Shown: positions 43,970-61,631 of the stretch, in pieces
Layout of the letters: each line of letters starts with the position of its first letter
Numbering within the stretch: the stretch's first letter is position 1
From: Verrucomicrobiota bacterium
GTDB taxonomy: Bacteria; Verrucomicrobiota; Verrucomicrobiia; Verrucomicrobiales; JBCCJK01
DNA length: 64,000 bases
Direction of reading: 5' to 3'
Assembly (NCBI GenBank): GCA_039027815.1
Contig: JBCCJK010000002.1
Coordinates: forward strand, 25,610-89,609
Made by a program: the position numbers and the translations under genes
Notes under the pieces: model-generated
Databases searched by the model: none
Seen by the model: only the letters and a program-made list of their open reading frames with translations
What the model was told of the DNA's origin: nothing

Positions 43970-44006
43970 TCGAAGGGGAAAACCTGATTGAAATTCGGTC
44001 GGCTAG

Positions 44007-44020
44007 GATATACGTATATC
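44007..44020. promoter_or_regulatory. Perfect 14-bp palindrome GATATACGTATATC, candidate VapB operator
   Basis: Palindrome ends 5 nt upstream of the vapB ATG in an AT-rich intergenic gap. TA antitoxins usually autoregulate through such operators. Confidence 0.5.
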
Positions 44021-44025
44021 TTCAG

Positions 44026-44654: not shown

Positions 44655-44712
44655 CTGACTTGGTGCGCACTGATTTGGGAAGACACGGAGGTCGTCCCTC
44701 CGGGAGCGGTTA

Positions 44713-45396: not shown

Positions 45397-45429
45397 TTTG
45401 GGAGTTTGCTCGTTTTCAGGATTCAGTTT

Positions 45430-47151
45430 TCAGGCGGACTGCTCGCTTCGCTTGGCAGTTTTTTGGATCAACGGGGAATCCGGAAGGGGGAGGGTGAGGA
45501 CGAAGTGGGCGCCTTTGCTGGATTCGCGGAGTGCGAGGGTGGCGTTCATTTCTTGGGCCAGGGTTCGGGCGATGCTGAGTCCGATGCCGGTGCCGCTCAC
45601 GCCTTCGGTCAGTTGGTCGCTCAGGCGGGTGAAGGGGGTGAAGATTTTTTCGCGGGCGTGTTGGGGGATGCCGGGGCCTTGGTCTTGGATGTGGATTTCG
45701 ATGCTCCCGTTGACGTCGTGGCTGGCGATGTGGGCTCGGCCTCCTTGGGCGGCGTATTTTTCGATGTTGCTGAGGAGGTTGCCTAGGATTTGCTCGAGGG
45801 CGTCGGGGTCGGCGGAGGCGGTTTGGGTGCTTTGGAGGTCGGTCTCGACGGTGATGCCGGCGGCGTCGAGGGTGGGTTGCCAGTGGGCGAGGGTTTGTTG
45901 GATGCAGGTGTTGGGGTTGAGGGGTTGGGGGTGGAGTTGGAGCTTTTGGCGGTCGGCGCGGGCGAAGCTGAGGACGTTTTGGATGAGCCGGGAGAGGCGG
46001 GAGCTTTCTTCCTGGACGATGTGGAGGGATTGCGCAGCGGGGTGGGCAGGGCCGCCGTCGAGGTCTTCGGCGGCCATTTCGGTGTAAAGCCGGATGTTGG
46101 TAAGGGGGGTTTTCAGTTCGTGGCTGACTTGGTTGACGAAGGAGACGCGTTGGGAGGCTTCGCGGAGGGCGCGGTTGTTTTCCCGGTAGAACCACCAGGC
46201 GAGGAGAAGGAGGACAAGGGCGAGGGCGGCCAGGTTGAGGAGGACGCTGAGGGGGAGGCCGGTCCGGGGGGCGGGAATGGTGGCAGAGTAGTAGTCGAGA
46301 GTCCAGCTTTCGAGAGGGGGGGAGAGGATGAGCGAGAGGAGGGGGACTTGGCTGGCCTCCGGGCGGTGGGCTCCCCATTGATGGAGGATTTCCCGGGTGG
46401 CGCTGCGCAGGACGATGCGGGTGTCCGGGAGGGAGGCTTTCCCGCCGAGCCGGGAGGGGAGGTCGCCGATGAGACGCGCCAGGAAGGCGGCGCGATTGAT
46501 TTCGGCGCCCAGGGTTTGACCGTTGTCGAGGCGGACCCAGTGGAGGAGGCCGATGTCGCTCCCATGAAAGAAGGCGTGCCAGCCGGTTTCCTGAGTGCTG
46601 ACACGAGCCCGGGGGAGGCTGCGCTGGCGGGCTTGTTTTAAGCCAAAGGCGGGGGCTTGAGAGCGCTCGGGCGCGAGGGGGGCGAGGAGGTCTTCTTCCA
46701 GCTCGTTTGGCGGGGGGGAAGGGCGGGCCGTTTCCTCTTCGCCAAAGCGGAGGCCAGAGGCCCAGATGGCCTGGGTGTGGTCGAGGAATTCCAAGGAGGC
46801 GGGGTTCCGGGTGTCGGGGGCGGGGTAGAGGAGTCGGGAATCGGCATCCAGGAGAAAGGCGTGGCGGACGAGGGGGGTGGCGATGGCGCTCGGTTCGAGG
46901 GTGGCGGCGGCCCTTTGGTAGGCTTGCAGAAGCTGCTGCTCGATGCGGAGCAGTTCGCTCCGAAAGGTGGCGTCGATTTCGTTCAGCTGCTGTTCGATGA
47001 GGGATTCGAAGCGTTCGGCGGTTTGCGTTTGTTCCTTGAGGCTCATTTCCCAAGCCAAGACCGCCAGAAGCCCGAGGGGGATCAGGACGAGCAGGGCGAA
47101 GGGGACTGAAGTTTTCAGGTTCAAGTTTTTATACCAACCTCCAGAATTCAC
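45430..47151 (-). CDS. Sensor histidine kinase (periplasmic sensor domain between two TM segments)
   Basis: HisKA SHELKTPLTNI. HATPase motifs NLLSNIEKY, DQGPGI, GTGIGLSIAR. Start is non-ATG: GTG 47151 lies inside repeat copy 3; the alternative TTG 47124 lies outside it. Confidence 0.85.
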   Translation of the reverse strand: MNSGGWYKNLNLKTSVPFALLVLIPLGLLAVLAWEMSLKEQTQTAERFESLIEQQLNEIDATFRSELLRIEQQLLQAYQRAAATLEPSAIATPLVRHAFLLDADSRLLYPAPDTRNPASLEFLDHTQAIWASGLRFGEEETARPSPPPNELEEDLLAPLAPERSQAPAFGLKQARQRSLPRARVSTQETGWHAFFHGSDIGLLHWVRLDNGQTLGAEINRAAFLARLIGDLPSRLGGKASLPDTRIVLRSATREILHQWGAHRPEASQVPLLSLILSPPLESWTLDYYSATIPAPRTGLPLSVLLNLAALALVLLLLAWWFYRENNRALREASQRVSFVNQVSHELKTPLTNIRLYTEMAAEDLDGGPAHPAAQSLHIVQEESSRLSRLIQNVLSFARADRQKLQLHPQPLNPNTCIQQTLAHWQPTLDAAGITVETDLQSTQTASADPDALEQILGNLLSNIEKYAAQGGRAHIASHDVNGSIEIHIQDQGPGIPQHAREKIFTPFTRLSDQLTEGVSGTGIGLSIARTLAQEMNATLALRESSKGAHFVLTLPLPDSPLIQKTAKRSEQSA

Positions 47152-47336
47152 CGGAAGAATGGAGGAGAGGTGTTGTGGGGAAGAGGCGCTGAAGCGCGGG
47201 GAAGGGAGAGCCGGTGTCTTTCGAGCCAGCGCCGCGTTGCTCCTCGGTTACGGTGCCTGCACCGCGCCCTCGTGGCGCCTTGGTCTGGCCCGAAATCCAC
47301 TCGGCCATTCTACCAACTAATTCTGCAGCTTGGTAT
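47131..47336 (+). repeat. 206-bp MITE-like repeat, copy 3
   Basis: Same termini and length. Lies between the vWA gene stop and the histidine kinase start, and overlaps the longest kinase ORF by 21 nt. Confidence 0.85.
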
Positions 47337-47453
47337 TCGTTTTCAGAAAGAAGAGGCCCGGCGCAAGGCCGGGCCTCTGGGGAAGTGAGGTGGGTGAGGG
47401 AGAAGGGGGCGGGACCTCCGCCCTCGCTCTTCGGGGTTTAGTTTTTGCGGGGT

Positions 47454-48782
47454 TTAGTTTTTGGAGCGGTAGCCGCTGTTTTGGGTGACTTTTTCGTTTT
47501 GGCGCTGGGTCATGGCTTTGCGTTTTTCGTTCCATTCGGCCCCGATGAGGTTTTCGGCGTCGTCTCGGTTGAAGCCTGCCTCCACCCGAAGCCTGGGAGC
47601 AGCGTAGGTGGTGGCGGCTTCGTCGAGGATGAGGGCGTTTTCCCGGAGGACGGCTTTAGCTTCTTCGATTTTACCCTGATCGCGCAGGCGCATGGCGGCG
47701 AAGTTGCGTTCGTTGGCGAGGAAGTCGACGACGGCGATCATGACTTCTTTGTTGGCGGCTTCCTCGGCGGCGGCCGGGTCGTCCGTGAGGCGGGCGACCG
47801 ATCGGGTTTCCAAGGTTTCGCGTTGGTCGGTCTTCATGTTGCGATAGGTGACGCGGGCGTCGGCGATGGCTTGGTCGCGGTTGGCTTGGCTGGCGGGAAT
47901 TTCGTATTCCACGAGGAGGAATTTCTCCTGTTCGGCGTAGAGCTGGTTGAGGGCGATTTTGATCTTCTGGCCTTCGATGGTGGCTTCCCGTCCGAGGACG
48001 CGCACGGGGCGGATGCCGTCGGCGATTTCGATTTCGATTTCGATGGCTTGGGCCACCACGGATTGGAGGTCGCCGAGTTCTTGGTCGAAGACGGCGGCCA
48101 GCTCCTGAGGCGTTTCCACGAAGCTGTGGGTGCCATCCGAGCGGAGGGCGAGCTGGTTCATGAGGTCTTCATTGTAGCCGCCGCCCAGGCCGATGGTGGT
48201 GACGGCGATGCCTTCCCGGGCGAGCGAGGAGCCGAGGTCGCCGAGTTCCTGAGGCGTTTGCGGGCCGACGTTGGCCTGGCCATCCGAGAGGAGGATGATG
48301 CGATTGACGGCCTCAGCTTGTTTGAATTTGCGGAGTTCTTCCGCGCCTTTGGAGATGCCGGCAAAGAGGGCGGTGCTGCCGCCGCTGGTGATTTCGTCGA
48401 TGGCGGCGTAGATGGCTTTTTTATGGGTGAGTTTGGTGGCGGGGACGAGGACATCCACGGTGTCGTCGTAGGTGACAATCGAGAGGATGTCTCGCGCGCT
48501 CAGGCGGGAGACGGCCATTTTGGCGGCTTGGCGGGCGTGGGCGATTTTTTGCCCCGACATGGAGCCCGAGCGGTCGAGCACGATGGTGACATTGATGGGC
48601 GCTCGCTCGGCCTCCGGCTCCATGGGGAAGCCGGTTAGCCCGACTTTGAGGTAGGAGCTTTGGGTTTCTCCCGCGAAGAGGAGGGGGTGGCTGAGCTCGG
48701 ATCGGAGGAGGAGCTGGTCCTGGACGGCGGGGGCGCTTTGGAAAGCGAGGGCGGTGAAGGCAGTGAGTAGGATTTTCTTCAT
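47454..48782 (-). CDS. Secreted von Willebrand factor type A (vWA) domain protein
   Basis: Signal peptide, MIDAS motif VLDRSGSMSG, ..GGSTALFAG.., ..ILLSDGQAN.. Confidence 0.85.
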   Translation of the reverse strand: MKKILLTAFTALAFQSAPAVQDQLLLRSELSHPLLFAGETQSSYLKVGLTGFPMEPEAERAPINVTIVLDRSGSMSGQKIAHARQAAKMAVSRLSARDILSIVTYDDTVDVLVPATKLTHKKAIYAAIDEITSGGSTALFAGISKGAEELRKFKQAEAVNRIILLSDGQANVGPQTPQELGDLGSSLAREGIAVTTIGLGGGYNEDLMNQLALRSDGTHSFVETPQELAAVFDQELGDLQSVVAQAIEIEIEIADGIRPVRVLGREATIEGQKIKIALNQLYAEQEKFLLVEYEIPASQANRDQAIADARVTYRNMKTDQRETLETRSVARLTDDPAAAEEAANKEVMIAVVDFLANERNFAAMRLRDQGKIEEAKAVLRENALILDEAATTYAAPRLRVEAGFNRDDAENLIGAEWNEKRKAMTQRQNEKVTQNSGYRSKN

Positions 48783-48920
48783 TGGGCAACAGGGTTGGTT
48801 GGTCCTCTACTGGGCGGCGCGGGCAGGGAAATGTCGTCAGCGGGGGGTTTGGAAATTGTAAGATGATTGTCAGCTTGAGGGAGCGGCTGCGTTTGCGGGA
48901 ATTCGGTTTTCAGTTTTACT

Positions 48921-49862
48921 GTGCGACCCATGACAGATTTCCAGGTGCTTCTGTTTTACCTTTACACGCCGATGGCGGATCCGGAGGGGTATCGGGATCG
49001 GCACCGCGTACTTTGTGAATCACTGGAGCTGAAGGGACGAGTCTTGGTGGCGAAGGAGGGCCTCAACGGGACGGTTTCGGGAACAGCGGAGAATTGTGAG
49101 CGCTACCGGGAGGCGCTGCGCCAAGACCCGGTCACAGCGGAGATGGTCTTCAAGACGGATCCGGTGGCAGGGCATGTTTTTCCCCGACTTTCCATCAAGG
49201 TGCGCGAGGAGATTGTGAGTCTGGGACTGGGGGAGGAGGATGTGAAGCCGTGGGAGGAGACGGGTCGGTCTTTGAGCCCGCGAGAGTGGCGGGAAAGGAT
49301 GGAGCAGGAAGAGGTGATCCTTTTGGATGGGCGGAATGAGTATGAGTCGGACCTGGGTCGCTTCGAGGGGGCGATCTGCCCACCGGTGGCGAATTTCCGC
49401 GAGTTTCCCGATTGGATCCGCGAGCATCTGGCCGGGGCCAAGGAACGGCCCATTTTGACCTACTGCACGGGGGGGATCCGCTGCGAGAAGCTTTCGGGGT
49501 TTCTCCTGAGGGAAGGCTTTCGTGAGGTCTACCAGCTCGAGGGGGGGATCGTGAGTTATGGGAAAGATGAGACGGTCCAAGGCGAGAAGTTTGAGGGGCA
49601 GTGTTATGTCTTCGACGAGCGGGTCGGGGTGGCGGTCAATCGGGCGGAGCCGCCCAAGGTGGTTTCCCGCTGCTCTCTCTGCGGCGAACCTTCGGACCGC
49701 TATGTGAACTGTGGCTTTTCTGGCTGCAATGCGCGGCTTTTCCTTTGTGAGGCTTGCCAGGAAAAGGAGGGGTGTTTCTGCAAGGAGGCTTGTCGGGAGG
49801 CGAGCGAAGTCCCCGAGACAAATGAATGCGTGCACGACGCCTCCGTCTCAGCATCACCATGA
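48921..49862 (+). CDS. trhO: Rhodanese-domain protein of the UPF0176/TrhO (YceA) family, Cys-rich C-terminus
   Basis: LLFYLYTPMADPE...GRVLVAKEGLNGTVSG, rhodanese active-site region YCTGGIRCEK, C-terminal CxxC-rich tail. Confidence 0.8.
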   Translation: MRPMTDFQVLLFYLYTPMADPEGYRDRHRVLCESLELKGRVLVAKEGLNGTVSGTAENCERYREALRQDPVTAEMVFKTDPVAGHVFPRLSIKVREEIVSLGLGEEDVKPWEETGRSLSPREWRERMEQEEVILLDGRNEYESDLGRFEGAICPPVANFREFPDWIREHLAGAKERPILTYCTGGIRCEKLSGFLLREGFREVYQLEGGIVSYGKDETVQGEKFEGQCYVFDERVGVAVNRAEPPKVVSRCSLCGEPSDRYVNCGFSGCNARLFLCEACQEKEGCFCKEACREASEVPETNECVHDASVSASP

Positions 49863-50431
49863 CCTCACAAGAAAACTCGCCCGCAGCCACGCAAGAATGG
49901 CGCAACTGGTTCGATAAAAACGGCAATCGCCTCCTCCTCTTCTCCCGGCAGCAGACCCGCTCGGCTGCGGACGCGGAGGATGTGCTGCAAGACGCCATCA
50001 TCCGCCTCTGGAAGTGGCGCTTGAACAAGGGGGAAGACCCCAACCAGCTTCCCAGTCTGGCGGAGGCTTACACGGCCATCCGCCGGACGGCCATTGACCT
50101 CGGTCGCAAGGAGACCCGCCGGGTCAAGCGGGAGCAAAATGTGGTGGAGTTCGACGATGAGTTCGGCGTCACTTGGTTCGAGAGTTCGCTCGAAGAAGAC
50201 GAACGAGATGAGCAGTTGCGCGATGCCATGAAAGAGCTACCGGACAAGTTCAAGGAGGTGTTGACGCTCAAGATTTGGACTGGTTTGACCTTTGCGCAAA
50301 TCGCTGAGACCCTCGATATCCCACAAAACACCGCTGCCTCCCGCTATCGCTACGCCCTGGAAGCGCTCCGCCGAAAAATCGTGGGCAAAGCAAATTATTC
50401 CGATTTTAACAACATGATGCTTTTGGCCTGA
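49859..50431 (+). CDS. ECF-type sigma-70 factor
   Basis: ATGA overlap with the trhO stop. Region 2 AEDVLQDAIIRLW. Region 4 HTH LTFAQIAETLDIPQNTAASRYRYALEALR. Confidence 0.85.
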   Translation: MTSQENSPAATQEWRNWFDKNGNRLLLFSRQQTRSAADAEDVLQDAIIRLWKWRLNKGEDPNQLPSLAEAYTAIRRTAIDLGRKETRRVKREQNVVEFDDEFGVTWFESSLEEDERDEQLRDAMKELPDKFKEVLTLKIWTGLTFAQIAETLDIPQNTAASRYRYALEALRRKIVGKANYSDFNNMMLLA

Positions 50432-50449
50432 CGCTTGAGTTGCGAAATT

Positions 50450-51001
50450 ATGAGTGAGCTGACCACAGAAGAAATCGAAGCCCGACTCCAAGCGCTGGTT
50501 CCGGCAGCGCCCACCGCCCGCTTGAAGGACCGGATCGAGAAGGCGCTTCTTTCCGATGATCCCCTGCCCGCCGCGCTTCCCGAGCCAGAAAAGGGCAAGG
50601 TCCTTCGCCCCAGCTTCCTGCGATGGGTGCCGGTGGCGGCGGCTGCCTGTCTCGCGCTTTTCCTTAGCATGCAGGTGATCCCGCAATTGCAGGGAACCCA
50701 AGAGACGGTTTTGGCGGGGGTCCATGCCGAGGCCCCGATGGAGAGCCCTTCTAGCACCCCGGCCATTGCAGGCGTGGAAGCTCCGATCTCCCCCGTTTCT
50801 CTCTCGGAAGGGGATGCATCAGCCAAGCTGGTGCGGACGGTCGATGAGGGAGTGCGGCAGTTGGCTAATGGGCAAGTGGTGCGCGTGCTGCGCTACGAGT
50901 ATTTGGATTCGAAGGAGTTTGTGGACCCGGCGACGGGGCGGAATGTGCGAATGACCCTCCCCCGAACCGAGTGGCGGCAAGTTCCTGCCAAGTTGGATTG
51001 A
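50450..51001 (+). CDS. Putative anti-sigma factor (single-pass membrane protein)
   Basis: Immediately downstream of the ECF sigma gene. Short cytoplasmic N-terminus, TM segment WVPVAAAACLALFLSM, extracytoplasmic C-terminus. Call rests on position only. Confidence 0.45.
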   Translation: MSELTTEEIEARLQALVPAAPTARLKDRIEKALLSDDPLPAALPEPEKGKVLRPSFLRWVPVAAAACLALFLSMQVIPQLQGTQETVLAGVHAEAPMESPSSTPAIAGVEAPISPVSLSEGDASAKLVRTVDEGVRQLANGQVVRVLRYEYLDSKEFVDPATGRNVRMTLPRTEWRQVPAKLD

Positions 51002-51029
51002 TATCGACTGCCCCGATCAAGATCGATCT

Positions 51030-51980
51030 ATGAAGCGGACGTTCGTTTCAACTGCGGTCCTGTGCTCGCTGGTGACTTTTGCGAGTGGGCAAGCAGGACA
51101 AGCGACTGAGGATTCTGCTAGGCAGGCTTGGTTAGGCATCGCCACCAACAAGCTGCCGGAGATCCTTTATCAGCATCTCGACATCCCGACCGGTTCGGGC
51201 CTGGCGGTCGATTACGTGGCGCCCGGGAGTCCGGCGGAGCGAGGGGGCTTGCAGAAAGACGACATTCTGGTGCGGCTTGACGAACAACTCCTGATCAATC
51301 CGGAACAACTCTCGGTCTTGGTGCGCCAACGGGCGGTCGGCTCGACCGCCACCCTGGAAGTCCTTCGCAAAAAGGAGCCGCTGTCCTTGCAGGTCGAGTT
51401 TGGTTCTTTGCCCCCGGCCATGGCTGAGAAGAGACCGCTTCCGTCTTCGCCTTCGGGGGGCGCTTCTTCCATCGATCAGCTTTTGGAGGAGTTTTTGGGT
51501 GAGGACCTCTTGGGAGACGCTCTCGACCGCTTGCGCCAGGAGGGTGGGGTGAGAGGGGTGGATCCTCTCTTGATGGACCAGTTTCAATCCCTTCTGGAAA
51601 ATCGGCTGGGGGAGGTCCTCCCACCGAGCGGGCCTGGGGTCCATCGTCGGGTCATGAATTTCGACGGAGAGGAGCTGCTTCTCCAGGATCAAGAGGGCTC
51701 CATCAAGGTTTTCTCGAAAGAAGGCAAGAAATGGTTGGAGGCACGCGATGGAGACAATGAGGTGGTCTTCAGTGGCCCCTACGAGACGGAAGAGGAGAAG
51801 GCCAAGGTGCCGGAAGCGCTCCGGGATCGTTTGGGGTCGGTTTCAATGGCCGGGGGGGACCTTTCCGAGCAACTTCGCCAGACGTTCCAGTTTCAGTTGC
51901 CACCTGTGCCGGCCGTTCCCGAAGGGGAGGGCGAGGGGTTGAAGGAGTTGATTCCCGAGCTGCCGTCGGAAGAGGACTAA
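51030..51980 (+). CDS. Secreted PDZ-domain protein
   Basis: Signal peptide. PDZ core GLAVDYVAPGSPAERGGLQKDDILVRLDEQLL. Confidence 0.7.
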   Translation: MKRTFVSTAVLCSLVTFASGQAGQATEDSARQAWLGIATNKLPEILYQHLDIPTGSGLAVDYVAPGSPAERGGLQKDDILVRLDEQLLINPEQLSVLVRQRAVGSTATLEVLRKKEPLSLQVEFGSLPPAMAEKRPLPSSPSGGASSIDQLLEEFLGEDLLGDALDRLRQEGGVRGVDPLLMDQFQSLLENRLGEVLPPSGPGVHRRVMNFDGEELLLQDQEGSIKVFSKEGKKWLEARDGDNEVVFSGPYETEEEKAKVPEALRDRLGSVSMAGGDLSEQLRQTFQFQLPPVPAVPEGEGEGLKELIPELPSEED

Positions 51981-52064
51981 TTTTCCTTCTCCCGAACTGG
52001 GTCGAACTGAGGTTTCGGGATTCAGGCAGTTGGCCCTTCTGCCACTTGGTCTGGCTGCTTCTTT

Positions 52065-52754
52065 TTACAGTGGGAGGAGGGAGATGTTTCTCCAGCGGAC
52101 TTGGAAGGGGCCGACTCCGGGTTTGATGCTGTGGACTTGAAAGCCGAGGAAGCCTTCCGAGAAGTGGGAAGTGCTGTCTTCTCCATCGGTCACGAGCTGG
52201 TCATTGATCCAGACCCGAATTCTTTTTCCTTCGACCCGAATTTTGTAGTGGTTCCAGTCTTCTTTGAGGTAGGCCTTGGCAGCGGTTTTGGGCGAGCCTT
52301 CCACCAGCCACCCGCCCACGCCTTCAAAGTAAATCGAGCCGGCTTTGTTGTTGGCGGCGATTTCCACTTGGGGTCCAGTGAGGCTGCCGGATTTGGTCCG
52401 CTTGCTGGCTTTCTTGAGGGTGGTTCCGGTGAGTTCTTCGGGCAGGTTTTCCGTGCTGTCGATCGAACGAATCTGCACCCCGCTATTGAGCTTGGGATCA
52501 CATTGGACCTCGAAGGTGAGTTCGAAGTCGGAGAAGGTTTGCTCCGGGCAGAGGAAGGTGTTGGGAGACTTCGGCTGAGTCGTTCCCACGATGGCCCCTT
52601 CGACGACCTCGTAAGTGGCTCGGCCTCCTTTGACTGACCAGCCCTCCAGGTCCGTCCCGTTAAAAAGCTGGATGGGCTCGGCCGCGTGGAGGCAAGAGCT
52701 GGCCAGCGCGCTGGAGAGAAGAAGAGAGAGGGGCAGGGGGCGGGGAGTTTTCAT
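52065..52754 (-). CDS. DUF1080 (3-keto-disaccharide hydrolase-like) secreted protein
   Basis: Signal peptide, LFNGTDLEGW, ...FLGFQVH...VRWRNISL pattern. Confidence 0.8.
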   Translation of the reverse strand: MKTPRPLPLSLLLSSALASSCLHAAEPIQLFNGTDLEGWSVKGGRATYEVVEGAIVGTTQPKSPNTFLCPEQTFSDFELTFEVQCDPKLNSGVQIRSIDSTENLPEELTGTTLKKASKRTKSGSLTGPQVEIAANNKAGSIYFEGVGGWLVEGSPKTAAKAYLKEDWNHYKIRVEGKRIRVWINDQLVTDGEDSTSHFSEGFLGFQVHSIKPGVGPFQVRWRNISLLPL

Positions 52755-52784
52755 GGTTGGAAAATGGGGAGGAAGGGGGGCAGG

Positions 52785-53537
52785 TTACAGTTCCTTGACC
52801 AAGATATTACGGAAGTGAATGAGGCCTTCTTCCGCCTTGTGAACTTGCAGGGCAAAATAGCCGCTCAGGAACTCTTCATTTTGAAAATGGGCGCACGGCA
52901 CTCCATTGACCCAAGTTTTGACGGTGGCGCCCTCGGCGTGGATGGTGATGCGGTTCCAGTCATCGAACTTGACGGCCTGACGGGCTTCTTGGTGGGCATC
53001 CAGCCAGAGGGGGTAGAGAAAGCCTCCCAATCCTTGGCCGTAGACGCCGCCCGTCCACCCGCGTTTCCGGGCGGCTTCTTCCAGCTCGACCTGCGGCCCC
53101 TGGACGCCTCCTCGGCCGATGACTCGGGAGCGGAATTGAATGCCAGAGTTGCCTTGGAGAAGCCATTTGAACTCCACCGTGAAGATGAAGTCCGTGAAGT
53201 CGTCTCGAACCGTGCAGAGGTAGGAATTGGCCTGGGGTGGCACGTAGGTGCCCACGATGGCTTCCCCTTCTGCGTGGTAGAGATTGTCGGCTCCGCGCTG
53301 GACCCAGCCATCAAGGTTCTTTCCATTGTAGAGCGAGACGAAGCCCTGGCTCAAGTCTGGCTCGGGGTCGGTGTTGAGAAGCATGGCCGAAGGCTCCGGG
53401 GTGGAGGGCTTTTCGCGCAGCTTTTGGTAGAGCTTCTCAAATCGGGGAGCGAGCTGCGGGGCTTCGGGCTCGTCCGCCAGGCCGGGGGAGGCCCCGGCGA
53501 GCAAGCAGGCTACGGAGAGGGGGAGGAAGTATTTCAT
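52785..53537 (-). CDS. DUF1080 (3-keto-disaccharide hydrolase-like) secreted protein
   Basis: ATG 53537 (MKYFLPLSVACLLAG) inside the longer ORF. LYNGKNLDGW, ...YFALQVH...IHFRNILV. Confidence 0.8.
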   Translation of the reverse strand: MKYFLPLSVACLLAGASPGLADEPEAPQLAPRFEKLYQKLREKPSTPEPSAMLLNTDPEPDLSQGFVSLYNGKNLDGWVQRGADNLYHAEGEAIVGTYVPPQANSYLCTVRDDFTDFIFTVEFKWLLQGNSGIQFRSRVIGRGGVQGPQVELEEAARKRGWTGGVYGQGLGGFLYPLWLDAHQEARQAVKFDDWNRITIHAEGATVKTWVNGVPCAHFQNEEFLSGYFALQVHKAEEGLIHFRNILVKEL

Positions 53538-53652
53538 GGTTTGTCTTTTATGCTTTCCATGGGCCTTCGACGGCAGGCGGTTGGTTAAAATCGATTTTTG
53601 TGCGTGGCGATGAAAAATTTTTGTCAGGCCTCTCGAGGTCTGTCTCAGCCCC

Positions 53653-55512
53653 GTGAAGCATTCTGTACTCGTTCCTTTCGGTTTCTTTTTTATGGCGGCC
53701 CCGACTGCTTTGTTGGCGGAGTTGGAAAAGCCCAACATCGTTTGGATCTGCGGCGAGGATCTCGGGGCGCAGTTGAGTCCTTATGGTGAAGAGCACGCCC
53801 GGCGGGCGGAGACGCCCCATATCGACTGGTTGGCCAGCCAGGGCCTGACTTACCAAATCGCTTGGTCGAATTTTCCGGTGTGCCGCCCCGCGCGGACCAC
53901 TTTGGCCATGGGTATGTATGCGGAGAGCCTGGGTGGGCAGCATATGCGCTCGGTGATCCCGCGCCCGCCGGGTTCCAAAATGTATCCCGAGATTCTCCAA
54001 GAAGAGGGCTATGAGACCATCAACCATGGCAAGGAGGACTACGCCATCAAGAAGGTGAAAGGGCTCTGGAGCAGCCAGGCGGATCTGGCCACCGCCAAGC
54101 AGCCATTCTTCATGAAGCTGCAAGACGGCAAGCTCCATGAGGGTGGGGTGCGGGCCAAAATGAAAGAGCTGAGCCAGGAGACCCTCCCCCGCTACGACCT
54201 TCCGGGTTTCCAACCGGACATCCCCGAGATGCATCGTGCTTGGCATGCGCTTTATCGACGGATCGAGGAGTTTGACGCGAAGATCGGTCGCTGGCTTGAG
54301 ACGATGGAAGAGCAGGGTCTGATGGAGAACACCATCATTATGCTGTGGGGGGACCACGGCCCCGGCCTGGCCCGCGGCAAGAGACACACGAGGGACTTTG
54401 GTCTACGCGTTCCCCTGATTTTTTATATTCCGGAGAAGTTTCGCGCCCATTTGGCTCCGGAGGAGTATCGGCCGGGTGGGGTGAGTGAGCGCCCGGTGGG
54501 GTTTGTGGATATCGCGCCCACCATGTTGAGCCTGGCCGGCATCGAAGCGCCGGAGATGATGCAAGGCGAGCCCTTTATGGGTCCGTTTGCCAAAGCCCCT
54601 TCCCGCTATGTCTTTGGCGCGCGGGGGCGGATGGATGAACGGATCGATATGGTGCGGACGGTGCGGGATGAGCGTTACCAACTGTTGCGAAATTACCAGC
54701 CTCACTTGCCCTATGGCCAACATGTCGCGACGCTCTTCAAAAATGAGGTGATGGGGCCGTGGCAGCGCTTGAGCGCTAGCGGCCAGATCAAGCCGCCGCC
54801 GGCTACCTACTGGGAACGCAAGCCTCCGATCGAGCTTTATGATCTGCAAGAGGATCCCGATCAAATTCACAATCTGGCGGAGGATCCGCAGGTTCGTCCG
54901 ATTCGCGATCGGCTCCTGGCCGCCTTGCACCAGCATCAGGAATCCATCCGCGATACCGGCTTCCTGCCCGAGGCCCAGATTCATAGCCGCCCGGCCAAGA
55001 ACCAATCGCCATACGAGTGGGCTCAATCGCCTGCCTATGAGCTTGAGAGGATCCGGAGGATGGCGGAGCTGGCAGCCGATACGTCCCCGGAAGCGGGGCC
55101 GCAGTTGCTGGCTGGCTTGGAGGATGAGGACCCAGCGATCCAATACTGGGCGGCTTTGGGCTTTCTCAACCGAGGGAGCGAGGTGGGGCGCGCCCACCTG
55201 GAAGAGCTGCGATCTTTCAGCGAAAGCGGGAGCGCTCCGACGGCCCGGGTGGCGACGGCGGAGGCGCTCGTCCAGTATGGGGAGGTCCAAGATCGGGCCG
55301 TCGGTCTGGCGGTCTTGCTGGAGCTGGCCGACCAAGAAACGCCCTCTTCGGACCAGTATGTGGCCTTGGCGGCTCTCAATGCCTTGGACCGTTTGGGGGA
55401 AGCCGCTCTCCCCCTTTACCCGGAGCTGAAGGAGCTGAAGGCGGCCAAGTATGGAGCCTTGGTGCTCTCGGAAACGCTTCTGCCGAGGTTGGAAAGCTTT
55501 CGAGGGCGGTAG
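53653..55512 (+). CDS. Arylsulfatase fused to C-terminal HEAT-like repeats
   Basis: Sulfatase N-terminus NIVWICGEDLG with formylglycine motif CRPAR(TTL). C-terminal repeats EDEDPAIQYWAALGFL / APTARVATAEALVQYG / YVALAALNALDRLG. Confidence 0.8.
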   Translation: MKHSVLVPFGFFFMAAPTALLAELEKPNIVWICGEDLGAQLSPYGEEHARRAETPHIDWLASQGLTYQIAWSNFPVCRPARTTLAMGMYAESLGGQHMRSVIPRPPGSKMYPEILQEEGYETINHGKEDYAIKKVKGLWSSQADLATAKQPFFMKLQDGKLHEGGVRAKMKELSQETLPRYDLPGFQPDIPEMHRAWHALYRRIEEFDAKIGRWLETMEEQGLMENTIIMLWGDHGPGLARGKRHTRDFGLRVPLIFYIPEKFRAHLAPEEYRPGGVSERPVGFVDIAPTMLSLAGIEAPEMMQGEPFMGPFAKAPSRYVFGARGRMDERIDMVRTVRDERYQLLRNYQPHLPYGQHVATLFKNEVMGPWQRLSASGQIKPPPATYWERKPPIELYDLQEDPDQIHNLAEDPQVRPIRDRLLAALHQHQESIRDTGFLPEAQIHSRPAKNQSPYEWAQSPAYELERIRRMAELAADTSPEAGPQLLAGLEDEDPAIQYWAALGFLNRGSEVGRAHLEELRSFSESGSAPTARVATAEALVQYGEVQDRAVGLAVLLELADQETPSSDQYVALAALNALDRLGEAALPLYPELKELKAAKYGALVLSETLLPRLESFRGR

Positions 55513-55538
55513 CTCTCGGGCCTTGTTTTGTGAGCGGC

Positions 55539-56921
55539 CTATTTCGGCGGTTCGGGCATGTTGGCGACGAGGCCGCGAAGGCGGGTGAGGACGGCGGCGT
55601 ATTCCGGGTTGTCTGCCAGGTTGTAGTGTTCCTCCGGGTCATGCTGGTGATCGTAGAGGGCCTCGCTGCCTCGTTTCCAGAGGGTGTAGCGATAGCGTGG
55701 ATCCCGCACGGAGCGGTCTCCATTGCAGTAGGAGTAGGCGATTTCTCGTCGGGGCGCGTTCGGGTCCTGCAAGAGCGGGACGAGGCTGAGCCCTTCGAGG
55801 TGGTCCGGCGGCTCCAGTCCGCAGAGTTCGGCCAAGGTGGGGTAGAGATCGATGAACTCCACGATGCGATCGGTGCTCTGGCCTGCTTGCGCCATCCCGG
55901 GGCTGGAAATCAGGAGGGGAGCGCGGCAGGATCGCTCAAAGAGGACTGCTTTGTTCCAGTAGTCTTTCTCTCCGACTTGGAAGCCGTGATCGCCGAAGAA
56001 GACAATGTGGGTGTTCTTCAGCAGGCCCTTGGCCTCCATGTGGTCGAGGACGCGACCCAGTTGCTCATCCATGTAGGAGGTGCCCGCATAGTAGGCTTGC
56101 ATGGCGCGGAGCTTTTCTTCGTGGGTCATGTTCTGGAAGGCCTTTTGGAAGACGTGATAGAAGGCGTAGTCCGGCACGGTGCTGGCATCGCCTGGGGTCT
56201 GGGGGAGCTGGAGCGAGTCGAGTGGATAGAGGTCGAAGAAGCGTTTGGGCGCGAAGAAGGGGTCGTGCGGTCGGGCGAAGCCGACCGCGAGGAAGAAGGG
56301 CACCCCGTCCGCTGCCAGTTCATCCGCCCGCCGGATGGTGGCGCGGGCGATTTGGAAGTCCTTGAGAAACTCTTCGCCTTCGGTGACGGAGCGCCATTGG
56401 AACCAGGGCACGGTGTCATCGCCCAGCATGGCTCCTGGGCCTCGGGTCCGTTTTTCTTGTCCTTGCTGATAGAATCGCGGTTCCCGGTCCATCGGAAGAA
56501 GGTCGCCGGTGTAGAGGTCGGAAATCTGGGTCCAGGACTGGGGATCGCGCTGGTGGAAGACTTTGCCGGTGGAGATGGCCCGGTAGCCATTTTCTTTGAA
56601 GAGCTGGGGGAGGGTGACGAGATCGGGCAGGAGTTCCCGGAGGGAATCGGCGTTGTTGAGGTTGCCGCTGGTGCCGGGGTAGAGGCCGGAGAGGAAGGAA
56701 TTGCGGCTGGGGTTGCAGAGCGGGTATTGGCAGTAGGCTCGATTGAACTGGAGGCTGCGCGCCCGAAGCCGGTCGAGGTGAGGGGTCTGCACCAAGGGGT
56801 GTCCGTAGGAGGCGATGTCGACATTGAGGTCGTCGACCACGATGAAGAGCACATTGGGGGCGCTTGCTAGTCCGCCCAGTGGCAAGCCAGCCACCAAGAG
56901 GGCGAGGAGGAAGGGTTTCAT
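55539..56921 (-). CDS. Sulfatase (iduronate-2-sulfatase-like)
   Basis: ATG 56921 (MKPFLLALLVAG). NVLFIVVDDL, formylglycine motif CNPSRNSFLSG, FGDHG. Confidence 0.85.
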   Translation of the reverse strand: MKPFLLALLVAGLPLGGLASAPNVLFIVVDDLNVDIASYGHPLVQTPHLDRLRARSLQFNRAYCQYPLCNPSRNSFLSGLYPGTSGNLNNADSLRELLPDLVTLPQLFKENGYRAISTGKVFHQRDPQSWTQISDLYTGDLLPMDREPRFYQQGQEKRTRGPGAMLGDDTVPWFQWRSVTEGEEFLKDFQIARATIRRADELAADGVPFFLAVGFARPHDPFFAPKRFFDLYPLDSLQLPQTPGDASTVPDYAFYHVFQKAFQNMTHEEKLRAMQAYYAGTSYMDEQLGRVLDHMEAKGLLKNTHIVFFGDHGFQVGEKDYWNKAVLFERSCRAPLLISSPGMAQAGQSTDRIVEFIDLYPTLAELCGLEPPDHLEGLSLVPLLQDPNAPRREIAYSYCNGDRSVRDPRYRYTLWKRGSEALYDHQHDPEEHYNLADNPEYAAVLTRLRGLVANMPEPPK

Positions 56922-57067
56922 TTCGGTGGAGACGGTGGAGCAGGTTTTCCGGGTGCCAAACGACAAATCTCCTTTCCTGCTCTCTTCCTTGGACTGGGCC
57001 AAGAGCGGAGTCGCGCTCGGGGAGACGGTCGCTTGACGGAGAAGGGGGCCAAGCGTAGCGCCGCTGG

Positions 57068-58063
57068 ATGGCGGCTGCTGCGGAATTCCCTCCTCCTCCT
57101 CCTCCTTCCGAGGGCCCGCCTTGGGCGGTCGAGCTGCGAGATCTGCGAGTCGATTACGGGGAGACTCTGGCGGTCAATGATCTCACCCTTCAGATCCGGC
57201 GGGGCGAGGTCTTCGGGCTGGTCGGTCCGAATGGGGCCGGGAAGACGAGCACCTTCAAAGTGCTCGCGACCCTGCTGGAGCCGACCTACGGGGAGGTGCG
57301 GATCGGGGGGCTGGACTTGGCCGAGGAACCGTCAGCGGTTCGCAGTCGCTTAGGCTACATGCCCGATCTCGCACCCGTCCCGAGCGACTTGCGGGTCTGG
57401 GAATTTCTCGATTTCTTCGGAGCGGCCCACGGGCTTTCCTCTCAGGAGAGAGCGGAGCGCAGCGAGGAGTCTCTCCAAGCGGTCCGCCTGACCGAAAAAC
57501 GCCAGGCGAAGTGCTCGGACCTTTCTCGAGGGATGAAGCAGCGACTGGTGCTGGCCAAGGTCATGCTGCATCGGCCAGAGCTGCTCATTCTGGACGAGCC
57601 GGCCAGTGGCATGGATCCCTTGTCCCGCCTGGCTTTGCGGGAATCCCTCCAGGCCTGGGCCAAGGAGGGGCGTGCGGTCGTGGTCAGTTCTCACATCCTG
57701 GGCGAGCTGTCTGAGATGTGCACCCGGATTGGGGTGCTGCATCAAGGAGCGCTCTTGGCGGAGGGACCAGTCGATGAGGTGGCCAATCGCTTGGCAGGCC
57801 AAGGCCGGAAGATCCGCGTGCGCTTTTTGCCGGGGCCGAGGGCGGGGGAGCGGATGGCTTCGCTTGTGCAAGAGGACCCTGCGGTGACCGGTTTGGAGCT
57901 AGAGGAGGGCGAGGCGATTTTTTTCTACGCCGGCCAGGCAGAGGAGCAGGTCGCGCTTCTGAGACGCTTGGTCGAGGGGGGGCTGCAGGTGGAGAGTTTC
58001 GCCGAGGAGCGGGCTCGCTTGGAGGAGGCCCTGGTGAGCTTGGATGGGGGGGAGCAGGAGTGA
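57068..58063 (+). CDS. ABC transporter ATP-binding protein (ABC-2/DrrA-like)
   Basis: Walker A GPNGAGKTS, signature LSRGMKQR, Walker B LLILDEPASGMD. Confidence 0.85.
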   Translation: MAAAAEFPPPPPPSEGPPWAVELRDLRVDYGETLAVNDLTLQIRRGEVFGLVGPNGAGKTSTFKVLATLLEPTYGEVRIGGLDLAEEPSAVRSRLGYMPDLAPVPSDLRVWEFLDFFGAAHGLSSQERAERSEESLQAVRLTEKRQAKCSDLSRGMKQRLVLAKVMLHRPELLILDEPASGMDPLSRLALRESLQAWAKEGRAVVVSSHILGELSEMCTRIGVLHQGALLAEGPVDEVANRLAGQGRKIRVRFLPGPRAGERMASLVQEDPAVTGLELEEGEAIFFYAGQAEEQVALLRRLVEGGLQVESFAEERARLEEALVSLDGGEQE

Positions 58064-59724
58064 GAGAGGGGACCTGGTGGAAGAATCCGATTTTTCGGCG
58101 CTATGTCCGCTCGCGCTTGCGCTGGCAGTCTTTTTTCAGCTGGGGGCTGGTCATGCTGCTGCTGACGGGCTTTGTCTATCTGCTGTCCTTTCTTTTGACG
58201 CGGGAGCGCTTGCTTTCGGCCGGGATGGGGGAGGCGCTCGCCCAGCGGGAGGGCTTCCGGGCCACCCTTCTTCCCCTGCTGGTGGTGCAGGGAATCATGC
58301 TGCTGCTGATGGGCACGGGGGCGGTGGCGTCCGGCATTGGCCGGGAGAGAGAGGAGGGCATGGTGGACTACCAACGCCTGACGCCTCTTTCCCCCGCGAC
58401 CAAGGCCTTGGGCTACCTCTTTGGCCTGCCGGTGCGCGAGTATGCCTTCTTCCTGCTGACGGTGCCCTTTTTGGTGGCCACCGCGGTGGGCGGAGCCATC
58501 CCCTTGGGTGCTTTGCTGCGCGTTTACAGCGTCTTTTTCGCTTCGGCCTGTCTTTATCACCTCACGGGGTTGGTGGCGGGTTTGGTTTTGAAGCGCTCGG
58601 CCATGGCGGCTCGGGGAACGCAATTCCTGGTGGTGGTTCTGTATCTCCTGATGCCGCGTTTTTCCGATTTGGGGATTTCTTTTTTTGAGTACCTCACGGT
58701 CCGGCCGGTGGCCCTGGCCGAGTTCCAATCCTTGCTCGATTTCGATCTGGGAGACGGGGACGCGGTTTGGTTGCAGGGGGTGCCGCTTTTCCATCTGGAA
58801 GTGGAGCAGGCGGTTTTTTCCTTGCTGCTGCAGACGGGCTTGGCGGTGGTGTTGTTTGCCATCGTGCGGCGGCGCTGGGCCCGGCAGGCAGGCTTGCTTC
58901 TCGGTAAGAACTTCGCGCTGGGGGCGTTCTCGGCCATGCTGCTGCTCTTGGTCGGCCATCTCATCCCGATGGTGCGAAGCGAAGCCCTCTTCGAGCTGCG
59001 CTCCGCTTCTTGGTGGCGCACGACCTCGGGGTGGGGGGCCTTGGGGCAGACGGCCCTGATCGGCTTGGTGGCTTTGGCGTCCTTCGGCATGCTGGTGACG
59101 GTGGTGGGAGGGCTGCTCACGCTGGCCATTACCCCCGGCCGGGAAATGATCCTGCGCGGTCTCCGCCGGGCTCGCAAGCGTTCGCTGAAACGGCTGTCGC
59201 TTTCGGCCGATGAGTCCCCGAGTGGGCTCTATGTGCTGGGAATCGTTGGGCTGGTATCGCTGGCCTGGTGGCTGCTGGCCCGCGAGCTGAGCGGGCTGCC
59301 ACGGATGGCGGAGGCCCTGCCTTCTGGGACGCCTTTTTGGTCCTATCTTCTGGTGCCGATTTTGGCCATCGGGCTGGCGCATTGGACGTGGGAGTGCTTC
59401 GGCCCGCGAGGCTTGTTTGTTCTGGTGGTGCCGGGCTGGATTCTCCCCCCGATGGTGGGGGTGATCTTGATTTCGGCCCAGCTGATCGAGCCCCAGGCGG
59501 TCTATCTCCTGGCGTGGAATCCGGTGACGCTTTGCTTCTTCCAAGTGTTCCGGGAGATGAGGGTGCCGGATACCTTGCCCTTGGCCCCCGCGTATTGGCT
59601 TTCCTTGGCAGGGCATGGCTTGGCTTGGGGCTGCTTGGGCTGGTGGCGAGGGAAGATGAGTCGGCGTTTGCAGCAAGCGGTGGCCAGCAACGAGCGGGTT
59701 TCCTTTCCTCAGGAGTTCACTTGA
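58060..59724 (+). CDS. Large polytopic membrane protein, presumed permease partner of the ABC ATPase
   Basis: 4-nt overlap with the ATPase gene. More than 10 hydrophobic segments. I recognise no family motif. Confidence 0.5.
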   Translation: MREGTWWKNPIFRRYVRSRLRWQSFFSWGLVMLLLTGFVYLLSFLLTRERLLSAGMGEALAQREGFRATLLPLLVVQGIMLLLMGTGAVASGIGREREEGMVDYQRLTPLSPATKALGYLFGLPVREYAFFLLTVPFLVATAVGGAIPLGALLRVYSVFFASACLYHLTGLVAGLVLKRSAMAARGTQFLVVVLYLLMPRFSDLGISFFEYLTVRPVALAEFQSLLDFDLGDGDAVWLQGVPLFHLEVEQAVFSLLLQTGLAVVLFAIVRRRWARQAGLLLGKNFALGAFSAMLLLLVGHLIPMVRSEALFELRSASWWRTTSGWGALGQTALIGLVALASFGMLVTVVGGLLTLAITPGREMILRGLRRARKRSLKRLSLSADESPSGLYVLGIVGLVSLAWWLLARELSGLPRMAEALPSGTPFWSYLLVPILAIGLAHWTWECFGPRGLFVLVVPGWILPPMVGVILISAQLIEPQAVYLLAWNPVTLCFFQVFREMRVPDTLPLAPAYWLSLAGHGLAWGCLGWWRGKMSRRLQQAVASNERVSFPQEFT

Positions 59725-59753
59725 CCTCCCGGTGAGATGACGTTGAAGGAGGC

Positions 59754-61151
59754 ATGGCCGATTTCACTCCCATCGCCGAAAAAATGCGCCGAGCTGGTTT
59801 GGGCGAGCCCGTGATTCGCTCCTTCGAGCGCAACTACCAGGCGCTGGTGGCCGGTTCCAGCACGGACATTCCCGAGGCCAGCATTCGCCCAGCGGTCGAT
59901 CTTCCTCGTGCGGACCAGTTGCCCGAAGGCGATGACTCGCTGCTTTCCCAAGCGGTCGTGATCAAACTGAACGGCGGTCTGGGCACGAGTATGGGGCTTT
60001 CAAAGGCCAAGTCTCTTTTGGAGGTGCGGGATGGGCAATCGTTTCTCGATCTGATCGCGAAGCAGGTCGCCTGGCGGCGGGCCCAGGGGGCGCCCACCCT
60101 GCGGTTTCTGCTCATGAACAGTTTTTCGACGAGCGAGGACTCCCGGGCGGCGCTGGCCAAGCATCCCGAGCTGGGCCCCCCAGAGGAGCTGGAGTTTGTC
60201 CAAAACAAGGTCCCCAAGCTCTCGGCCTCTGATTTTTCGGCGGCCCAATGGGCGGCCCAACCGGAACTGGAATGGTGCCCGCCCGGCCACGGGGATCTCT
60301 ACCTGGCCTTGGCTGGTTCCGGGAAGCTGGCGGCGCTTTTGGCTGAGGGCGTGAAGTATGCGTTCATTTCCAATGCGGACAATCTGGGGGCGTGGCCGGA
60401 TCCGGCCATTCTTCGCCATTTCGCCGAGAGCGAGAGTTCGTTTCTGATGGAGGTGACGCGGCGGACCGAGAGCGATAAGAAAGGAGGGCACTTGGCAGTG
60501 CGGGTGGCGGATGAGCAGCTGGTGCTGCGGGAGGTGGCGCAGTGTCCGGAGGAGGACCTCGAGCGCTTCCAAGACATTGCCAGACACCGCTTTTTCAATA
60601 CCAACAATCTCTGGGTTCGGCTGGATCGCCTACAAGAGGCGCTCGAAGCCAACGACGGGATCTTTCCCCTGCCGTGCATTCGCAACCAAAAGACGGTCGA
60701 TCCACGAGAGGGCGATTCCCCAGCGGTCTTCCAGCTGGAAACGGCCATGGGGGCGGCGGTCGAGTGCTTTGGCGACGCCACGGCCCTGGAGGTGCCCCGC
60801 TCTCGTTTCGCCCCGGTCAAGCTGACCTCCGATCTGCTGGCGCTGCGCTCGGACGCCTTTCAAGTGACGGAGGACTTTCGGTTGGAGTTGGTGGCCGAGC
60901 GAGAGGGCCAGCCTCCTTTCATCGAGCTAGATAAGAAGCACTACAAGCTAGTGGAAGGCTTGGACGCTCTTTTGGCGACCGGTGTCCCCTCCTTGGCGGC
61001 TTGCCAACGGCTTTCGGTGCAAGGGCCGGCCCGCTTTGCCGAGGGGGTCCGTTGTCAGGGTGAGGTGACCTTTGAGAATCCGGGGGACGAGGTGGCCGTG
61101 ATTCCGGCGGGGACCTATCAGGATGAGAAGGTTTCGCTTTCTGGTTCCTGA
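59754..61151 (+). CDS. UTP--glucose-1-phosphate uridylyltransferase of the eukaryote-type UDPGP family
   Basis: VIKLNGGLGTSMGLSKAKSLLEVRDGQSFLDL, LLMNSFSTSEDS, PPGHGDLY and ISNADNLGA are collinear with eukaryotic UGPase and unlike GalU. Confidence 0.85.
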   Translation: MADFTPIAEKMRRAGLGEPVIRSFERNYQALVAGSSTDIPEASIRPAVDLPRADQLPEGDDSLLSQAVVIKLNGGLGTSMGLSKAKSLLEVRDGQSFLDLIAKQVAWRRAQGAPTLRFLLMNSFSTSEDSRAALAKHPELGPPEELEFVQNKVPKLSASDFSAAQWAAQPELEWCPPGHGDLYLALAGSGKLAALLAEGVKYAFISNADNLGAWPDPAILRHFAESESSFLMEVTRRTESDKKGGHLAVRVADEQLVLREVAQCPEEDLERFQDIARHRFFNTNNLWVRLDRLQEALEANDGIFPLPCIRNQKTVDPREGDSPAVFQLETAMGAAVECFGDATALEVPRSRFAPVKLTSDLLALRSDAFQVTEDFRLELVAEREGQPPFIELDKKHYKLVEGLDALLATGVPSLAACQRLSVQGPARFAEGVRCQGEVTFENPGDEVAVIPAGTYQDEKVSLSGS

Positions 61152-61170
61152 TCGCTCGAGAGGCCGCCTC

Positions 61171-61376
61171 ATACCAAGCTCCAGAATTCACTGTTAGAAT
61201 GGAGGGAAGGTGTTGTGGGGAAGAGGCGCTGAAGCGCGGGGAAGGAAGAGCCGGTGTCTTTCGAGCCAGCCCTGCGTTGCTCCTCGGTTACGGTGCCTGT
61301 ACCGCGCCCTCGTGGCGCCTTGGTCTGGCCCGAAATCCACTCGGCCATTCTACCAGCCAATTCTGCAGCTTGGTAT
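61171..61376 (+). repeat. 206-bp MITE-like repeat, copy 4 (first unit of a tandem dimer)
   Basis: Same termini and length. Separated from copy 5 by a single C (61377). Confidence 0.85.
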
Positions 61377-61377
61377 C

Positions 61378-61583
61378 ATACCAAGCTTCAGAATTCACTG
61401 GTAGAATGGAGGAAAGGTGTTGTGGGGAAGAGGCGCTGAAGCGCGGGGAAGGGAGAGCCGGTGTCTTTCGAGCCAGCCCAGCGTTGCTTCTCGGTTACGG
61501 TGCCTGCACCGCGCCCTCGTCGCGCCTTGGTCTGGCCCGAAATCCACTCGGCCATTCTACCAGCCAATTCTGGACCTTGGTAT
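61378..61583 (+). repeat. 206-bp MITE-like repeat, copy 5 (second unit of a tandem dimer)
   Basis: Same length. The 3' terminus carries substitutions (ttctggaccttggtat). Confidence 0.85.
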
Positions 61584-61631
61584 AACGCATCGTGTTCCCG
61601 TGACAGGTCAGGGGAGCAATCTCTCCAAAGT

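Follow-up and report, generated by a model that had tools for sequence, protein, structure and literature searches.

Five copies of a 206-bp element are scattered through the intergenic gaps of a 64,000-nt stretch of DNA from a bacterium of the Verrucomicrobiota, the whole of which is referred to here as the window and the gene content of which is otherwise housekeeping. The copies align without gaps over all 206 columns, just as the initial annotation had described them, with 95.6–97.6% identity to their consensus and with 10–14 substitutions and no indels separating any two of them. The invariant blocks that it quoted are likewise correct, and the 31-mer belonging to the third block occurs five times in the window, where no occurrence is expected. 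All five copies lie on one strand, the sense of their core being that of the minus strand, a co-orientation that had been pointed out before and that has a chance probability of about 1/8–1/16. In addition, a sensitive BLAST search of the consensus against the window finds a 23-bp relic, which had also been recognised, that retains two termini and has lost the interior between two CCAA microhomologies. No further copy was found in the window by a covariance model, on which the five copies score 69–80 bits and the next best site 16 bits. The copies and the relic are located as follows.

6980–7002, minus strand: relic, 23 bp, ATACCAA joined to TTCTGCAGCTTGGTAT; adjoins the phosphoglucomutase stop codon
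9437–9642, minus strand: copy c1, flanked by minus-strand YlbF-like and RRM genes
42781–42986, minus strand: copy c2, between convergent genes
47131–47336, minus strand: copy c3, flanked by minus-strand histidine-kinase and VWA genes
61171–61376, minus strand: copy c4, 206 bp, left half of a tandem pair; core sense on the minus strand
61378–61583, minus strand: copy c5, 206 bp, right half of the tandem pair, 1 nt from c4

The gene contexts agree with those originally given, c1 and c3 lying between tandem minus-strand genes and c2, the c4/c5 pair and the relic between convergent 3′ ends. The insertion spots are AT-rich intergenic islands at gene ends, and stop codons seem to act as suppliers of TA-rich targets in this genome of 61% G+C. 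At c2 the terminal T (42984–42988) is part of the TAA stop of an FtsJ-like ORF, of which it is the first base in the minus-strand reading, and at 6978–6982 the final A of the phosphoglucomutase TAA stop is also the first base of the relic. The two members of the tandem pair differ at 10 positions; because they are no more alike than other pairs of copies, c4 and c5 are two independent insertions into adjacent TA sites and not a duplication. The copies form a star phylogeny, and they are young. None of the 38 ORFs in the window, when scanned against Pfam, contains a transposase or recombinase domain, in agreement with the earlier statement that no transposase is present. The TIRs and TA flanks described below, the dispersed intergenic copies, the relic, the adjacent independent insertions and the want of coding capacity are together those of a MITE-like element, as had been proposed.

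Architecture of the hairpin

The minus strand of the element folds with −96.5 kcal/mol (z = −6.0 relative to shuffled sequences), as compared with z = −2.7 for the plus strand. Its terminal arms are 31–32 nt long, imperfect and 84–91% complementary, in keeping with the TIRs of about 32 bp initially reported, and on the minus strand the layout runs from a 31-bp outer TIR stem through an inner stem to a core at element positions 54–101. Read on this same strand, the conserved module consists of a stem (P1), a purine-rich internal loop of 16/17 nt, with AAGGCGCGACGAGGGA as its 5′ strand and GACCGAGGAGCAACGCn as its 3′ strand, and a hairpin (P2). The whole is asymmetric because a 48-nt unpaired segment is found on the 3′ side only. 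The apex of the hairpin is the loop of P2, at plus-strand element positions ~127–130; the variable cluster near the centre (element positions 96–105), which had been placed at about 96–106 and taken for the apex, is in fact the junction of stem P1 and the core. The parts of c4 and the modules of the other copies have the following coordinates.

61171–61201, unstranded: TIR arm of c4, the more variable one; partner of 61346–61376
61202–61249, minus strand: 48-nt unpaired segment of c4, pyrimidine-rich (purine-rich on the plus strand), with a mini-hairpin GCGC-UUCA-GCGC
61259–61335, minus strand: conserved module of c4 (P1, internal loop, P2), covariance model 74.2 bits
61276–61323, minus strand: invariant core CCAAGG…GCAAC of c4
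61346–61376, unstranded: TIR arm of c4, the better conserved one; pairs with 61171–61201
61466–61542, minus strand: conserved module of c5, 79.5 bits
9525–9601, minus strand: conserved module of c1, 76.9 bits
42869–42945, minus strand: conserved module of c2, 68.7 bits
47219–47295, minus strand: conserved module of c3, 72.0 bits

The plus-strand side of the unpaired segment (61202–61249 and its equivalents in the other copies) is rich in G-tracts, GGGAAGGTGTTGTGGGGAAGAGGCGCTGAAGCGCGGGGAAGG, and has predicted G-quadruplex potential. On that strand it starts with GGAGG beside an ATG, which opens a 128-aa ORF (61199–61585) spanning the dimer; this ORF across c4/c5 is probably non-coding.

Host lineage and relatives of the element

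Exact look-up of the window's proteins returns matches only to short Logan contigs of run SRR22824308, and the closest genomes for a UDP-glucose pyrophosphorylase gene near the element are Verrucomicrobiota MAGs with at most 61% amino-acid identity, so that the host is a verrucomicrobial lineage without a close sequenced representative. This accounts for the fact that exact 20–25-mers of the element have no match in GTDB genomes, JGI metagenomes or IMG/VR, and the 206-bp subfamily is private to this unsampled lineage. Two of the Logan contigs cover ~42,961–47,196 and ~47,286–61,200 of the window, and every contig end (4/4, in L001, L262 and L263) is located within copy c2, c3 or c4; the repeat is therefore a point of breakage in short-read assemblies of the organism.

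When a profile of the five copies was run with nhmmer against 1.27 Mb of verrucomicrobial DNA around UDPGP homologues, there was a single significant match (E = 3e-8), at locus L061 in a Roseibacillus MAG. This is a complete element of ~204 bp with the ATACCA…TGGTAT ends of the window copies, in which the TIR sequence is different, the inner stems are fully compensated and the core is nearly identical. The bases common to the window element and L061 define a gapped pattern, CCAAGGCGC-N22-30-ACCGAGNAGCAAC, which matches at least 100 loci in JGI metagenomes, where chance would give no more than a handful. The same architecture is seen at about 83 of them, in the form of a long near-perfect palindromic hairpin, at the apex of which CCAAGGCGCGACGAGGGAGC is followed by a variable hairpin and then by GACCGAGGAGCAACGC. 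Since the pattern had fixed part of the core, and had thereby inflated the apparent conservation in the first 77 sequences, a covariance model (R1) was built, and it recovered 120 members across the sequences searched. These members come from soil, freshwater and marine samples and from at least three verrucomicrobial lineages, Roseibacillus and Chthoniobacterales MAGs included. Among the copies that are independent of the pattern are two in the Chthoniobacterales MAG L056 and one in L018, two inverted pairs on a contig from a viral collection (L195/L200), and the second cores of larger soil elements.

Many contigs of relatives carry two or three copies in either orientation, and several cores are located at contig ends. 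With respect to flanking genes, as judged by crude gene calls, 7 relatives are sense, 9 antisense, 10 convergent and 8 divergent, an unbiased distribution that counts against a cis role in host mRNAs; the single orientation noted in the window is hence not, as had been supposed, a trait of the family. Clustering of the neighbour ORFs of the 83 loci revealed no conserved partner gene, the clusters being made up only of spurious ORFs overlying the element and of ordinary housekeeping genes. Lengths are characteristic of each subfamily (158–166, 183–197, 206 and 268–282 bp). The strict length that the initial annotation had read as the mark of a structured RNA or terminator-like element thus stands as a property of subfamilies, but among the window copies it is also to be expected because they are young.

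Two variations on the architecture are found among the relatives. In one of the Chthoniobacterales copies (L056 107–237) the P2 loop is enlarged by an insertion of 56 nt and the remainder of the module is intact, from which it follows that the apex of P2 is dispensable. The 268–282-bp relatives contain two inverted modules ~110 nt apart (L163 384–575, L111 614–805, L095 5770–5961, L195 3160–3345 and others), of which one is highly conserved, at 80–90 bits, and the other, on the opposite strand, is a diverged and distinct type that scores 26–45 bits and is itself conserved among soil contigs.

Conservation and covariation

The relatives were compared in an alignment (A4) of 77 non-redundant cores over 83 columns, representing 29 P1 subfamilies, in which P1 pairs columns 1–14 with 70–83 and P2 pairs columns 32–38 with 45–51. 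The stem cells are paired in 79% of cases versus 54% in shuffles, and both-sided changes occur in 19/21 stem pairs. Covariation, which the initial annotation had named as a check on structure, is evident among these relatives, with a score of 0.58 as against 0.19 in shuffles and 0.12–0.16 in slid registers. The stems and termini of the subfamilies are unrelated in sequence, yet the stems covary, and P2 varies in sequence and in length while its pairing persists. In the 26 distinct rows that are independent of the search pattern, core positions are 85–100% conserved: A16-G17-G18, A62 and G67 are each present in 26/26 rows, G20-C21 and A26 in 25/26, and G54-A55 and C63-G64-C65 in 24–25/26. As the loop is near-invariant in these rows also, its conservation is real.

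The module is thus under strong purifying selection across a superfamily of TA-flanked hairpin elements, and, because its stems covary and the length of P2 varies, it acts as a folded single strand, whether RNA or single-stranded DNA. A deeply conserved structured centre with covarying stems, shared by a large environmental superfamily, upholds the earlier impression that the element is more constrained than a decaying MITE. As for the internal loop, its two strands can be drawn as one uninterrupted helix in which G-C pairs separate three tandem G·A/A·G steps. In five lineages loop positions 24/56 have changed from C-G to G-C, and in L018 positions 27/53 have changed from G-C to A-U; G24 stands opposite G56 in several members, which is at odds with such a helix. 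The tandem-G·A helix is accordingly put forward as a proposal with partial support.

Strand, chemistry and promoter-like motif

The pair that closes P2 is G·U in 38/77 cores and A·C in 0/77. This pattern, together with the capacity of the purine-rich strand for G·A pairing, speaks for the window's minus strand as the one that folds. With the closing pair excluded, the stems contain 56 G·U and 50 A·C, that is, no strand bias, and they behave like a symmetric DNA palindrome. A strand test based on G·U pairs in MFE structures had given a modest bias towards the sense strand; the alignment count traces that bias to a single position, and the test was dropped as evidence for RNA.

What favours RNA is the occurrence of a −10-like motif upstream of the core, together with the lower variability of the arm in which it is found. 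The motif is present in every copy.

61347–61355, minus strand: TGGTAGAAT, extended −10-like motif, inward-facing, 5′ of the sense core of c4
9613–9621, 42957–42965, 47307–47315 and 61554–61562, minus strand: TGGTAGAAT in the other copies

The string TGnTAnAAT occurs 11 times in the window versus 0.9 expected, and 8/11 occurrences are within elements. Variable sites number 4 in the arm with the motif, upstream of the sense core, versus 13 in the other arm. The motif sits inside the TIR, which has other grounds for being conserved, and a −35 element was not detected. Intrinsic terminators were sought around c2 and c4/c5 on both strands with 0 sites returned. The hairpin lacks a U-tract behind it and is therefore no intrinsic terminator; the element is not a transcription terminator, and the terminator-like role suggested for it is not borne out.

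Ends, target sites and mobilisation

All copies are bounded by A-TA-CC…GG-TA-T and have no other flanking direct repeat, and the relic and the Roseibacillus element L061 are likewise flanked A-TA…TA-T. Among 30 relatives with resolved ends, 18 are flanked by TA at both ends, 11 at one end and 1 at neither, and these TA flanks most often lie within C-TA-G. The terminal signature common to the relatives, when palindromes are extended to their outer limit, is 5′-(T)AGTG…CACT(A)-3′. From such flanks we infer a duplication of TA at the insertion sites, no empty site having been recovered among the loci searched; the invariant A…T beside the TA may belong either to the TIR or to an ATAT target.

TA is the sole insertion target of IS630/Tc1-mariner elements, which duplicate it; IS630 has a preference for TA within CTAG, and TA flanks on one side only occur even in vitro (PMC2170065). 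Because the element has TIRs and TA flanks, which are signatures of its ends, it would be mobilised in trans by a transposase of the Tc1/IS630 type. IS630 and ISY100 share with it the TA target and short TIRs, and the flanks seen here agree with theirs; they differ in being autonomous elements of ~1.1 kb that encode a DDE transposase, no such gene having been found here, so that the link is through end signatures only. Neither the window nor ~2.6 Mb of related DNA yielded a cognate transposase, and a search of that related DNA with TIR pairs gave no longer element with matching ends, which is to say that the autonomous partner with the same TIRs that had been envisaged did not appear there.

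Interpretation and alternatives

We consider it probable, though by no means assured, that the window contains young copies of a TA-inserting hairpin MITE with a conserved folded central module, mobilised by Tc1/IS630, in which the module is most probably a transcribed RNA. Under this scheme a non-autonomous MITE would most likely be cut out and pasted into TA dinucleotides by a DDE transposase of the Tc1/IS630 type, the gene for which would lie elsewhere and be bounded by ATACCAAGCTGCAGAATT…. The centre of the palindrome carries, unlike that of ordinary MITEs, an asymmetric module of ~50 nt (P1, internal loop, P2). The folded strand would most probably be an RNA transcribed from the window minus strand, because every copy has the inward-facing TGGTAGAAT just upstream of the core. 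The invariant loop, able to zip into a tandem G·A helix, would then probably form a platform that is used by a conserved protein or in RNA processing, and such a platform might favour the persistence of the element, although both of these last steps are speculative. A bolder form of the argument, which we offer tentatively and regard as rather less than probable, holds that the module is an undescribed and widespread functional RNA, either a new ribozyme or the scaffold for some conserved protein, and that it owes its spread among Verrucomicrobiota and further environmental bacteria to a superfamily of TA-inserting hairpin transposons, with the RNA, and not the transposon ends, as the selected unit. 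The elements may even depend on the module RNA for their propagation.

The strand that folds might instead be DNA. If the hairpin were extruded during replication or transfer and its loop were a site of recognition or nicking, the element could spread without a DDE transposase, the strand-specific enzyme being an HUH/Y1 transposase, as in REPIN-RAYT systems and IS200/IS605 PATEs, or else a primase or an RNA polymerase such as acts at the single-strand origins of plasmids. Several observations fit: the stems have no bias of G·U over A·C save at one position, the near-perfect palindrome of each element has a conserved, strand-asymmetric part at its centre, some relatives have two inverted cores in the manner of REP doublets, and the ~2.6 Mb of related DNA contained no DDE partner. 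Tandem G·A pairs, moreover, are stable in DNA and RNA alike. We nevertheless judge this unlikely, since TA/CTAG flanks together with long TIRs mark Tc1/IS630 elements and not HUH elements, which have neither TIRs nor target-site duplications; since the elements end in AGTG…CACT or ATACC…GGTAT and lack the GTAG/CGTC tag that REPs carry; since there is no Y1/HUH gene within the window; and since G·U at the base of P2 in half of the members is more typical of RNA. Quite unlikely, in our estimation, is that these are ordinary MITEs without any fold, whose centre has been conserved by recent descent or horizontal spread, or as a duplex protein site like that for IHF in Correia elements. Bacterial MITEs can indeed carry central protein-binding sites and promoters (PMC10969869), and the search pattern does inflate the apparent conservation in the first 77 sequences. 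However, the core is also conserved in the 26 distinct copies independent of the pattern, and it is kept across the 29 stem subfamilies; as the TIRs and stems of these subfamilies have no sequence in common, descent alone would not spare just the core. P2 varies in sequence and length and still remains paired, something that a duplex binding site does not need, and the element turns up in samples from soil, fresh water and the sea and in three or more verrucomicrobial lineages.

The covarying stems and invariant loop, the promoter-like motif and the lack of a match to any known family, which leaves room for a new RNA class, could also be those of a non-mobile family of small-RNA or ribozyme genes, in which the long stems were part of the RNA and the TA flanks incidental. 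This we hold to be very unlikely, because five near-identical copies and a relic within 64 kb, several copies per contig in both orientations and in non-orthologous contexts, breaks in assembly where the copies occur, and termini bounded by TA are all properties of mobile repeats, and because there is no conserved neighbouring gene. Finally, the location of the copies at gene 3′ ends, three times between convergent genes, and the great stability of the hairpin would suit a bidirectional intrinsic terminator or a hairpin at mRNA ends between genes, but other things speak against it: there is no U-tract on either strand, the terminator scan gives 0 sites, a 206-nt hairpin with an invariant internal loop far exceeds the needs of a terminator, and relatives are found about equally in divergent and tandem contexts. 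We give that explanation hardly any credence.

Comparison with known systems

No match to a described RNA family was obtained, although the initial annotation had allowed for one: Rfam 15 gave 0 matches at gathering thresholds for the window and for 15 member loci, with hairpin and other ribozymes, SRP, Acido-Lenti-1 and HEARO among the families not matched; with permissive scans included and 25 member loci taken, it again has no match, the permissive scans returning only spurious miRNA-hairpin matches. Plasmid records searched by BLAST in distant mode had no match to the element, and no description of the CCAAGGCGCGACGAGGG…GACCGAGGAGCAACGC module was found in a literature search that also used the core as a text string and covered few subscription journals. 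Several other identities were considered and set aside. A tRNA origin was suggested by a D-arm-like stretch, GGCCGAGUGG, despite which ARAGORN finds nothing in the window or at L061. A sigma-54 promoter in the antisense core fits one subfamily only on inspection, and the K-turn and hairpin-ribozyme readings of the loop misfit the consensus by inspection and have no Rfam match.

The class of bacterial MITEs that includes Correia/NEMIS of Neisseria, ERIC and RUP consists of non-autonomous elements of 100–200 bp with TIRs, insertion at TA and many intergenic copies; they form long hairpins, have internal promoter-like sequences and give rise to RNA cut by RNase III/E, with a central IHF site in Correia (PMC10969869). 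By analogy these would be the closest functional counterparts of the window element, which resembles them in size class, TIRs, TA insertion, hairpin and promoter-like motif and has no sequence relationship to them. In that class the whole element is one sequence family within a genus or family, whereas here only the ~50-nt core is common and the stems and termini are unrelated; and where Correia has a duplex protein site, there is here a module of covarying stem, invariant loop and stem.

REPINs are strictly intergenic, are present in hundreds of copies and are mobilised by RAYT transposases. They are like the present relatives in being short, hairpin-forming, non-autonomous repeats, and some relatives have two inverted cores. 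REPs, however, are 20–40 bp long, have the GTAG/CGTC tag and are without TA flanks or long TIRs, and the elements here differ on all of these counts; at 158–282 bp, TA-flanked and with AGTG…CACT or ATACC…GGTAT ends, they do not have the REP form. No RAYT (Y1 transposase) domain was found within the 64-kb window. IS200/IS605 PATEs have no TIRs and no target duplication and possess a subterminal hairpin at each end, and the elements here depart from them in their long TIRs that pair end to end and in their TA flanks. The ωRNA/HEARO of IS200/605 and the bridge RNA of IS110 are likewise conserved folded non-coding modules in mobile elements, selected above the rest of the element, but they accompany TnpB, IscB or an IS110 recombinase, whereas here there is no conserved neighbour gene and no Rfam match.

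MITEs are usually seen as decaying deletion derivatives that are constrained only at their ends. In this superfamily the ends and stems of the subfamilies have diverged beyond recognition while the central folded module is almost invariant, and the selected unit is therefore the module and not the transposon ends. The module, which has over 100 natural variants, is described by a covariance model and contains an invariant loop that is defined, is a candidate for a new structured nucleic-acid motif, carried by abundant yet little-studied soil and aquatic bacteria, the assemblies of which it would explain as fragmented at specific points. Were it a catalytic RNA, or one that has a protein partner, it would offer a bacterial parallel to the functional RNAs of eukaryotic SINEs and retrozymes.

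Other features of the window

Frames +1 and −1 are open through the full 206 bp in all five copies, and the translated frames resemble no protein among 5.8 billion clusters. Rickettsia palindromic elements can sit in frame inside genes, and the open frames recall them. Plus-strand GC skew at 32001–48000 is unusually high, at 0.22–0.28 per 8-kb bin versus ~0–0.1 elsewhere in the window. Between c2 and c3, at ~44170–44660 (2543–3231 of contig L263), lies a PIN-domain gene with an adjoining 91-aa gene, a toxin-antitoxin-like arrangement.
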